Sequence record: MT446394.1
Reading direction: 5' to 3' (one strand)
Origin: Escherichia virus TH20
DNA length: 40,001 nt
Made by a program: the position numbers and the translations under genes. Below are positions 21,748 through 23,231 of the stretch, one piece after another (the first letter of the stretch is position 1; each line of letters begins with the position of its first letter). The notes under the pieces were generated by a model that made no database searches, was not told the origin of the DNA, and was given only the letters and a program-made list of their open reading frames with translations.

Positions 21748-21787
21748 AAAAAAAAAACCCCTCAAGCACCCGAAGGCACCCAAGGGG
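21748..21787 (-). terminator. Tphi-like intrinsic/RNAP terminator after the capsid gene
   Basis: Minus-sense CCCCTTGGGTGCC-TTCG-GGTGCTTGAGGGG with G-U pairs followed by T10; same position and style as T7 Tphi. Confidence 0.7.
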
Positions 21788-21793
21788 TTTAAA

Positions 21794-22084
21794 TTAGTTT
21801 GTGAACGAAACGTTGAATGACCTAACGGTAGACCCGTCATATCCAACAGTTACAAGACCTGTCACAGCATCGGTGGCCTTGAAGTAGAGACTTGAAGTTC
21901 TACGAGAGTAGCTCACACCATCCGGCATGGTTACATCCAGCAGAGACCAGTCGGTCACATCTGCCAGCTCAGGGAAGTCCACCTTAATACTGACACCAAC
22001 TGAGGACTCCAAGGTTTCCAAGGTAGGACCCTCAGTAGAGAGAGTCCTGAAGGTCATTAACCCGCTGCTGCTGGACTGAAAACC
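21794..22084 (-). CDS. Capsid 10B-type C-terminal extension, reached by -1 frameshift at GGTTTTC (22084-22078), or a separately translated 87-aa ORF
   Basis: -1 frame is open from the heptamer near the 10A end through ORF 21794..22057; ATG at 22057 overlaps 10A stop (TAATG). Confidence 0.5.
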   Translation of the reverse strand, partial: GFQSSSSGLMTFRTLSTEGPTLETLESSVGVSIKVDFPELADVTDWSLLDVTMPDGVSYSRRTSSLYFKATDAVTGLVTVGYDGSTVRSFNVSFTN

Positions 22085-23106
22085 AGAGCACCAGCCGCTT
22101 CAGGACGCAGACCACCGTGACCCATAGCGTATTTACCAACAATCAGGTCGCCCTGAGCATCGACGTCACGGTCACGTTCCAGCGCCAAGTCACGCAGCTT
22201 CACAGTACCAACAGCGGAGCGGTGAGAGAATAGGCCCACAACGTTGTCCATAGCAACTTTAACGTCGTTAGCAGTAGTTGCCGGGAATGCGTGTTTCTGA
22301 CCGGAAGCGATAGAGATACCATCGGCACCACGGGTCTCACCAGCGCCACCCTGTACCAGATGCGGAACTTCAACAACAACGAAGCCCATCACGTTACGGA
22401 TGTTACCAGTCTCCGGGTCAATCAGCGCAGCGTAGTTAGCAGCGTTAGGCATCAGAGCTGCTAGAATCGCAGAGTAGTTGTTAGGCGTGGTGTAGAAGTA
22501 ACGGTCGCCAGCAGGAACGTAGTTGGAGGTCAGCTTCGCACGAGCAATGGTCAGTTGGCCGATGATTGCTTCACCAAGCTTAGCCGGAGTGTTAAGGTCG
22601 GCTTTAGTGCCAACTTCAAGTACGGACGCAGTGCCCAGACCAGCGATATTCTCGTTGGATGCAGCCGGGAGGTTACACAGGATAGCCATTTCAGCCAGAA
22701 CAGCACCATCAGCAGCGATAGCCAGAGCTTCACCCAACTGGTTGGAGTACTCGCCGGCCACGTCATAGTGGTTCATCGCGTCTTCAATGTCGAAAATCAT
22801 CACATCGGCAGTCAGCAGACCATCAATGGTAATCACTTTCTCGGTATGTTTGATACCTTTACGCTTATCGGACAGTCGCTCACCCGGAGCCAGATACACA
22901 CCAGAGGTGCGACCCATGACCGGGAACTGAGCAGACTTACCGTTCTGAATGGTACGGACAATATGCTTGTCAGCAGTTACAGAGCGGCGAGTGAATGCGG
23001 TCAGGACTTCACCAGCAAATACCTTCAGGAACAACGCCAGAGCGTCGGAACTGGATTTGCCTTTACCTTGGTCTGTACCAATTTTCTGACCCGGAACGTT
23101 TGCCAT
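22057..23106 (-). CDS. Major capsid protein (T7 gp10A-like), 349 aa
   Basis: Co-linear with T7 gp10A (LALFLKVF.GEVLTAF, EKVITIDGLLTADV, NVMGF.VVEVPHL, KYAMGHGGLRPEAAGA); AGGAGA upstream. Confidence 0.97.
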   Translation of the reverse strand: MANVPGQKIGTDQGKGKSSSDALALFLKVFAGEVLTAFTRRSVTADKHIVRTIQNGKSAQFPVMGRTSGVYLAPGERLSDKRKGIKHTEKVITIDGLLTADVMIFDIEDAMNHYDVAGEYSNQLGEALAIAADGAVLAEMAILCNLPAASNENIAGLGTASVLEVGTKADLNTPAKLGEAIIGQLTIARAKLTSNYVPAGDRYFYTTPNNYSAILAALMPNAANYAALIDPETGNIRNVMGFVVVEVPHLVQGGAGETRGADGISIASGQKHAFPATTANDVKVAMDNVVGLFSHRSAVGTVKLRDLALERDRDVDAQGDLIVGKYAMGHGGLRPEAAGALVFSPAAAG

Positions 23107-23208: not shown

Positions 23209-23231
23209 TCTCCCTATAGTGATAGTTTAGT
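23209..23231 (-). promoter_or_regulatory. Phage-RNAP promoter upstream of capsid gene (phi10 position): ACTAAACTATCACTATAGGGAGA
   Basis: Best match to consensus including GGGAGA start; +1 G at 23214. Confidence 0.8.

Follow-up and report, generated by a model that had tools for sequence, protein, structure and literature searches.

The 3' end of the major capsid gene in the window (here the whole stretch of 40,001 nucleotides from Escherichia virus TH20 that was analysed) raises the question of whether a small open reading frame (ORF) overlapping the capsid stop codon is expressed as a C-terminal extension of the capsid protein through a programmed -1 ribosomal frameshift, or is translated on its own. 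The 1.55-kb region around this feature shares 96.6% identity with Escherichia phage PE3-1 and 90-95% with many further Kayfunavirus genomes, and the phage is a Kayfunavirus, that is, a K1F/PE3-1-like relative of T7. Genes on the minus strand are arranged in the order scaffolding protein, phage-type promoter, capsid gene, small ORF, terminator, and tail tubular protein A. The two features that define the capsid transcription unit are as follows.

23209..23231, minus strand: phi10-type phage RNA polymerase promoter, ACTAAACTATCACTATAGGGAGA, assigned from its sequence; it drives the gene 10 transcript
22057..23106, minus strand: gene 10A, major capsid protein (349 aa, 36.4 kDa), from the ORF list; stop codon TAA at 22059..22057

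The PE3-1 record annotates a promoter at the position matching 23209..23231. The 10A ORF matches Pfam Gp10A-like (E 1.4e-104), is 98% identical to PDB 9vvq (E 3e-215), and matches the T7 gp10A structure 2xvr (E 1e-144), which identifies it as a homologue of the T7 major capsid protein; its C-terminal peptide is YAMGHGGLRPEAAGALVFSPAAAG. Unshifted 10A proteins of 347-349 aa are labelled 'minor capsid protein' in PDB 9vvq and in the GenBank records of Pkp-1, KKP_3263, and IME278, a naming error that has spread via annotation pipelines.

The candidate frameshift site, the region read in two frames, and the extension that would follow are located at the end of this gene.

22078..22084, minus strand: slippery heptamer G_GTT_TTC on Val342-Phe343, a site for a -1 tandem slip that is identical in sequence to the T7 gene 10 site
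22057..22078, minus strand: dual-coding overlap; frame 0 reads F-SPAAAG-stop (10A C-terminus), frame -1 reads QSSSSGL(M)
21794..22078, minus strand: -1-frame extension of 10B, 94 codons, QSSSSGLMTFRT...SFTN, with TAA at 21796..21794; drawn from translation, dN/dS, and phrog_7473

A preliminary description of this DNA had placed GGTTTTC at 22084-22078, shortly before the capsid stop, and we found it there on the minus strand, where the capsid ORF reads it as G_GTT_TTC; its Phe codon is residue 343, not 342, and is followed by six sense codons (SPAAAG) and TAA, with the 10A stop at codon 350. That description also proposed, with some uncertainty, that the T7 gene 10 site is similar, which is right, as both the T7 sequence and papers on T7 give the same GGTTTTC on the same Val-Phe codons. 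The T7 record reads ...GCA GTG GTT TTC AAA GTG GAG TAA TG..., in which the heptamer lies on the homologous Val-Phe codons, and 10B is annotated in that record as a joined CDS. In T7, 10B is made by frameshifting at about 10% efficiency. Passages in PMC1635266 and PMC5009743 state that the T7 gene 10 frameshift occurs on GGTTTTC and cite Condron, Atkins and Gesteland 1991 for the 10A/10B -1 frameshift, and a passage of Atkins et al. 2016 (PMC5009743) lists G_GU for X_XX in the gene 10 heptamer of T7.

There are three copies of GGTTTTC in the window compared with 4.3 expected, showing that the heptamer alone is not beyond chance. From C22078, the -1 frame reads QSSSSGLMTFRTLSTEGP...SFTN (QSSSSGL-MTFRT...SFTN) with open codons over 22078..21797; the run previously put at about 94 codons is exactly 94 codons long and extends to the TAA at 21796..21794. 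Stop codons make up 9.3% of the -1-frame codons in the genes of this phage, which puts the probability of 94 consecutive open codons at about 1e-4; within these genes, the -1 frame is open for 57 codons at most. The arrangement of site and open frame is therefore beyond chance, unlike the heptamer by itself. The extension ends just before a Tphi-like terminator, as had been described, the hairpin of which begins 3 nt past the stop. The predicted 10B consists of 10A codons 1-343 and the 94-codon extension, giving 437 aa and 46.0 kDa instead of the 436 aa proposed earlier. Its predicted junction tryptic peptide is YAMGHGGLRPEAAGALVFQSSSSGLMTFR (Arg-Pro uncleaved), and peptides within the extension are predicted from the translation, e.g., TLSTEGPTLETLESSVGVSIK. 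A protein identical to the 437-aa fusion was not found in the protein collection searched, and the 87-aa ORF appears as 'hypothetical protein' in the closest relatives of the window (PE3-1, HC12, and LS2).

If the heptamer and the -1 frame work together, they should be expected in the same relatives. By combining 80 IMG/VR loci encoding capsid relatives with annotated GenBank loci and removing duplicates, we obtained 86 non-redundant capsid loci. GGTTTTC was detected in 50 of them, invariably on Val-Phe codons, and in 48 of these 50 the -1 frame continues without interruption for at least 42 codons beyond the 10A stop; the +1 frame shuts within 3-9 codons in most GGTTTTC loci. Loci in which Val-Phe is written with GTC, GTA, or GTG followed by TTC mostly have short -1 runs (3-57 codons), and therefore the synonymous choice of GTT tracks the presence of the extension. 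Long -1 ORFs found without GGTTTTC nearly all have a T3-type A_AAG site or run into gene 11. The very long -1 ORFs of some relatives (217-225 codons) were rejected as extensions, as they represent gene 11 in the -1 frame without a slippery site.

Several relatives deserve separate mention. The two GGTTTTC loci with a short -1 ORF (L011 and L049) have only 10 and 15 codons past the 10A stop, respectively; the open stretch of L011 (43 codons) is instead in the +1 frame, pointing to an indel or sequencing error in its extension. Nine loci (L060, which is IMGVR_UViG_651703078_000001, and L044, L051, L059, L063-L065, L071, and L076) lack GGTTTTC and have an in-frame A_AAG just before the stop. The -1 ORFs of A_AAG-type relatives in this group have 85-94 codons, and that of L060 has 176 codons, corresponding to two tandem Big_2-like domains. 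Two different slip sites thus serve one purpose within one capsid family. Two further loci (L027 and L028; IMGVR_UViG_2974510153_000001 and 2974581333_000001) have the variant C_GTT_TTC, with the Leu codon CTC instead of CTG, and a full 96-aa extension of the window's family lies downstream of it. Because the extension is intact in both, the first base of the heptamer may be dispensable, with slippage occurring mainly via the UUUC A-site slip.

Pairwise dN/dS values of the -1 frame are 0.16-0.37 (0.60 in one distant pair), and control frames of the same alignments have pN/pS of about 1-5, above 1 in nearly all comparisons. On the basis of these alignments, the -1 frame is under purifying selection, including the part that lies upstream of any start codon.

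What this frame encodes could be divided into two parts.

22019..22078, minus strand: linker-coding part (extension residues ~1-20), predicted to be disordered (AlphaFold2 pLDDT 46-49) and poorly conserved in alignments
21797..22018, minus strand: Ig-like beta-sandwich domain with seven strands (extension residues 21-94), predicted by AlphaFold2

AlphaFold2 was run with a 42-sequence alignment, on database proteins. The model of the extension has a mean pLDDT of 82.6, with residues 21-94 at 91-93 and residues 1-20 at low confidence. A fold prediction had been proposed as a check, and it gave a predicted linker followed by a seven-strand, two-sheet Ig-like beta-sandwich. The best Foldseek match in PDB is the C-terminal Ig-like domain of the lambda tail tube protein (E 2e-3, TM 0.55), and the best BFVD match is the 'minor capsid protein' of Pectobacterium phage PP81. 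As modelled, the extension is probably a linker of about 20 aa plus an Ig-like beta-sandwich. In profile searches, it matched phrog_7473, a family of 'unknown function', with E 1.1e-35; the match pairs residues 8-87 with positions 2-82 of the 82-position profile. The Pfam search gave no match for the window's extension and no credible family across the 42 members: Big_3 was matched weakly by 5 of the 42 (best E 0.0025), and the Big_2 profile had no significant match to the window's extension. A kinship to the Big_2 domain of T3 10B was also considered and rejected, as only a spurious, out-of-register match of 25 residues was found. Tblastn detected the domain in 451 phage records, including 283 of Klebsiella phages (among them K11), 53 of Escherichia phages, and 35 of Salmonella phages.

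The heptamer precedes three kinds of extension: (i) the T7/K1F-type tail of 45-55 aa (..TPQQKAARTRAAN..); (ii) a Big_2 domain, found in L029 (Pfam Big_2, E 1.2e-8); and (iii) the domain of the window, 91-96 aa long with the conserved motifs VTDWS and RRTN(S/T)LYFK. The extension, earlier termed '10B-type', does not resemble T7 10B in sequence and is an Ig-like domain of a different family. In two metagenomic loci (L054, IMGVR_UViG_3300034349_000001; L073, IMGVR_UViG_3300034127_000003), the capsid Val-Phe site reads G_GTT_TTT_A. The -1 ORF downstream of it encodes at least 411 aa before leaving the locus; it begins with an Ig-like (Big_2-like) part and contains the SGNH/GDSL-hydrolase-like motifs IFIHCGTNNY and DGTHSN. 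This ORF may be a very large enzymatic capsid extension that is produced via frameshifting.

Whether the extension is reached by frameshifting or by independent initiation depends in part on a start codon at the capsid stop.

22055..22057, minus strand: ATG overlapping the 10A stop (TAATG), lineage-specific and without a Shine-Dalgarno motif

The preliminary description had noted that ORF 21794..22057 has its own ATG overlapping the 10A stop, which is correct (ATG 22057..22055, within TAATG), and that independent translation is possible. The latter point stands insofar as the ATG is present and an 87-aa product is conceivable, but the comparative data favour frameshifting and the ATG is lineage-confined: it is present only in the window/PE3-1 lineage, Peacock-type relatives having TAACG and others TAACG or another sequence. 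No GGAGG-like motif was found in the 18 nt upstream of the ATG (TCCAGCAGCAGCGGGTTA). Depending on the lineage, the extension frame has its first ATG, GTG, or TTG at codon 8, 9, 11, 13, 14, 24, 27, or 31, and none of these lineage-specific start codons has a Shine-Dalgarno motif. Because the position of the start codon varies by lineage, gene callers give inconsistent N-termini, with versions of 54-87 aa among the matches listed; the 120 proteins listed, of 155 matches, are all stand-alone calls of 54-87 aa, and none of them joins the domain in frame to the capsid or another protein. In extension codons 9-26, which precede every possible start in most of the lineage group concerned, pN/pS is 0.27, close to the 0.20 of the remainder. 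Since selection acts upstream of the starts, these codons appear to be translated and to be reachable only by ribosomes coming from gene 10A. Independent translation is thus not a conserved route, considering that the ATG is found in one lineage and has no Shine-Dalgarno motif. That the downstream ORF is self-translated from ATG 22057 (e.g., by termination-reinitiation at UAAUG), yielding a free Ig-like protein of 87 aa and 9.4 kDa, we consider improbable. Such a route would agree with the overlap of ATG and 10A stop as TAATG and with the listing of the ORF as a separate 'hypothetical protein' in most GenBank records. T7 shares the GUAAUG arrangement, but its ORF, although also beginning with GUAAUG, is known to be frameshift-expressed according to passages of the T7 literature. 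The missing Shine-Dalgarno motif, the absence of the ATG from most relatives with the same domain (TAACG; first start at codon 9-31), and the purifying selection upstream of those starts (pN/pS 0.27) argue against it, as do the co-conservation of the slippery heptamer with the ORF and the fact that a free Ig-like domain would have no evident route of attachment to the capsid.

The same fused protein might instead arise in transcription, if the phage RNA polymerase slipped on the T4 run and the ribosome did not; the heptamer includes TTTT, and the annotators of CR8 flag 'tttt' as the site. Polymerase slippage normally requires homopolymers of at least about 8 bases, a length that four Ts do not reach, and the conserved phase G_GTT_TTC on Val-Phe matters for tRNA re-pairing but not for a polymerase. 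Moreover, a passage of PMC5009743 places what happens at this sequence in T7 among ribosomal shifts of the X_XXY_YYZ class, and we regard transcriptional slippage as very improbable here. A long -1 ORF could also be a chance or decaying open frame without a product, in line with the heptamer not being over-represented in the window, but this has an almost negligible likelihood given the probability of about 1e-4 for such an open run, the occurrence of the domain in 451 phage records, and its confidently predicted beta-sandwich fold; above all, dN/dS is well below 1 in the -1 frame only, and the selection analysis effectively refutes this explanation.

The programmed -1 frameshift giving 10B, called probable in the preliminary description, is supported by the T7-identical site, the co-conservation of site and ORF, selection on the -1 frame, and the annotation of a joined 10B in relatives. 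The feature very likely corresponds to the programmed -1 ribosomal frameshift known from gene 10A/10B in T7-like phages. Most ribosomes would read G_GUU_UUC normally and terminate six codons on, giving the 349-aa 10A, and a minority would slip back one nucleotide on the heptamer, with the A-site tRNA-Phe re-pairing from UUC to UUU and the P-site tRNA-Val from GUU to GGU. The slipped ribosomes would then read 94 codons in the -1 frame and stop just before Tphi, giving the 437-aa minor capsid protein 10B, which would comprise the full capsid fold to Phe343, a flexible linker of about 20 residues, and an Ig-like beta-sandwich of about 73 residues. Since the capsid body of 10B is complete and competent for assembly, 10B should assemble together with 10A, and it would show the Ig-like domain on the exterior of the head, likely as an accessory weak-affinity adhesion module for surface glycans or mucus. 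We infer the actual shifting in this phage and its efficiency, as well as the incorporation of 10B in the capsid and its adhesive function, from these comparisons and predictions.

We also examined which elements around the slip site may stimulate or modulate frameshifting.

22025..22048, minus strand: RNA hairpin in the linker-coding region, AGGACUCUC-UCUACU-GAGGGUCCU (9 bp; -15.6 kcal/mol, z -2.2)
L024:2240-2290, L079:2236-2286, and L081:2218-2268: counterparts of the linker hairpin in relatives
21748..21790, minus strand: Tphi-like intrinsic terminator, AAACCCCTTGGGTGCC-TTCG-GGTGCTTGAGGGGTTT followed by a T run, found by terminator scan and homologous to T7 Tphi

No canonical stimulator was found 5-9 nt 3' of the heptamer, and the 136-nt fold around the site has a z of -0.5. 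A local 3' stimulator was considered and rejected, since the cross-lineage consensus fold reaches no more than -5.7 kcal/mol and its conserved ACCUU/AAGGU pairing is explicable by conserved Thr-Phe and Lys-Val codons. A 5' stimulator (Shine-Dalgarno-like, of the dnaX type) was likewise rejected, as synonymous sites in the 10 upstream codons vary freely (Ala/Gly entropies 1.1-1.6 bits). An Rfam search returned sub-threshold chance matches only. The only local hairpin is that in the linker-coding region, which starts 29 nt downstream of the heptamer and 8 nt downstream of the 10A stop. Hairpins of differing sequence are located at the equivalent place in every lineage with the domain, 20-29 nt 3' of the slip site: CR8-like hairpins have a z of -3 to -3.5, and Klebsiella-phage-like lineages have an 18-bp helix (-26 to -29 kcal/mol, z about -6). 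Base pairing is preserved at 97-98% of pairs in these hairpins, with covariation at one or two pairs, and the stem includes the first in-frame AUG in some lineages. The spacing of the linker hairpin is too long for a classical stimulator, and the evidence for it is modest. The Tphi-like terminator consists of a 16-bp hairpin (21790..21755) and T10, starting 3 nt past the extension stop, and is present 3' of the extension stop in all relatives examined. It contains CCCC at 21787..21784; according to a passage of PMC5009743, frameshifting in T7 involves a terminator CCCC located over 200 nt downstream.

The slip site and the terminator also mark the borders of a segment that differs between close relatives.

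21800..22066, minus strand: swappable extension cassette, from blastn of the window against L007, L008, L026, L034, and L012

Capsids of L007, L008, L026, and L034 are 96-98% identical in protein to that of the window, yet these loci carry a K1F-type tail. DNA homology to them is 93-96% up to 22066, 11 nt beyond the heptamer, and is found again from 21800 on, where Tphi begins. Given this break in homology between 22066 and 21800, the extension behaves as a cassette swapped between two conserved anchors. Passages of PMC5009743 describe Ig-like domains that move by recombination and are then expressed by frameshifting, and cassette exchange fits this description. A tentative and rather unlikely joint reading would be that the hairpin is an RNA element tuning the 10B:10A ratio, either as a distal frameshift modulator or by a pause between the capsid body and the Ig-like domain, and that the slip site and Tphi are fixed recombination anchors for an exchangeable 'display cassette'. 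The contents of such a cassette could be the T7-type tail, Big_2, the Ig-like family described here, or the extension of more than 400 aa with SGNH-hydrolase-like motifs in some metagenomic relatives.

Because the 437-aa fusion is unlisted and the 87-aa ORF is a 'hypothetical protein' in the nearest relatives, the gap is one of annotation, not of knowledge. In this genome and in PE3-1, HC12, and LS2, a joined 437-aa minor capsid protein 10B should replace the separate 'hypothetical protein'. In addition, phrog_7473, which is encoded by some 450 sequenced T7-like phages, most of them phages of Klebsiella, Escherichia, and Salmonella that feature in therapy work, probably gains an identity as a capsid-displayed Ig-like domain made via frameshifting. 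The C-terminus of 10B is a natural display point, which is of relevance for phage display and engineering, and the feature bears on ideas about Ig-like domains in weak adherence to mucus or cell surfaces.

Among known systems, T7 10A/10B has a homologous capsid gene, the identical G_GUU_UUC, and the same ..VF-QS.. junction; its -1 ORF also ends just before a homologous, CCCC-containing Tphi, and its ATG also overlaps the 10A stop. It differs in the length of the extension (55 aa in T7 versus 94 aa here), in its nature (a T7 tail, ...TPAQEAARTRAANKARKEAEL..., versus an Ig-like beta-sandwich, the two having no sequence similarity), and in the distance from slip site to terminator CCCC (about 180 nt in T7 versus about 290 nt here). 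K1F, the type phage of Kayfunavirus, belongs to the same genus and has a -1 frameshift at the 3' end of g10, but with a T7-type tail, whereas a different cassette lies between slip site and Tphi here. In K1F, the -1 frameshift adds 44 codons, and GFP fused to the end of g10b (g10b::gfp) gave stable fluorescent virions (PMC6277420); the Penshu1 announcement gives the same description for another T7-like phage.

Further counterparts are found in GenBank. Peacock (Kayfunavirus) has a CDS for a 'minor capsid protein' joined by -1 frameshifting, the extension of which is 78% identical to that of the window, and the record of Citrobacter phage CR8 annotates 10B as a -1 frameshift product at the same heptamer with a 49% identical extension (E 2e-24). 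The CR8 record adds 'matches in mass spectrometry analysis', with extension or junction peptides not specified; the frameshift is stated in this record and is unmentioned in the CR8 genome announcement. Unlike the window, CR8 and Peacock have no ATG overlapping the stop. The PE3-1 record notes a possible extension via a slippery sequence. T3 10B likewise has a C-terminal Ig-like capsid domain gained by -1 frameshift, with two capsid products from one gene, as described in a passage of PMC5009743, but its site is C_CCA_AAG (T3 record) instead of G_GUU_UUC, and its domain is of the Big_2 type, whereas that of the window has no Pfam match. The mechanism is thus already known, and the feature in all likelihood belongs to the ordinary 10A/10B frameshifts of the T7 type, with an extension from a non-T7, Ig-like family that the records of some related phages already annotate as 10B.
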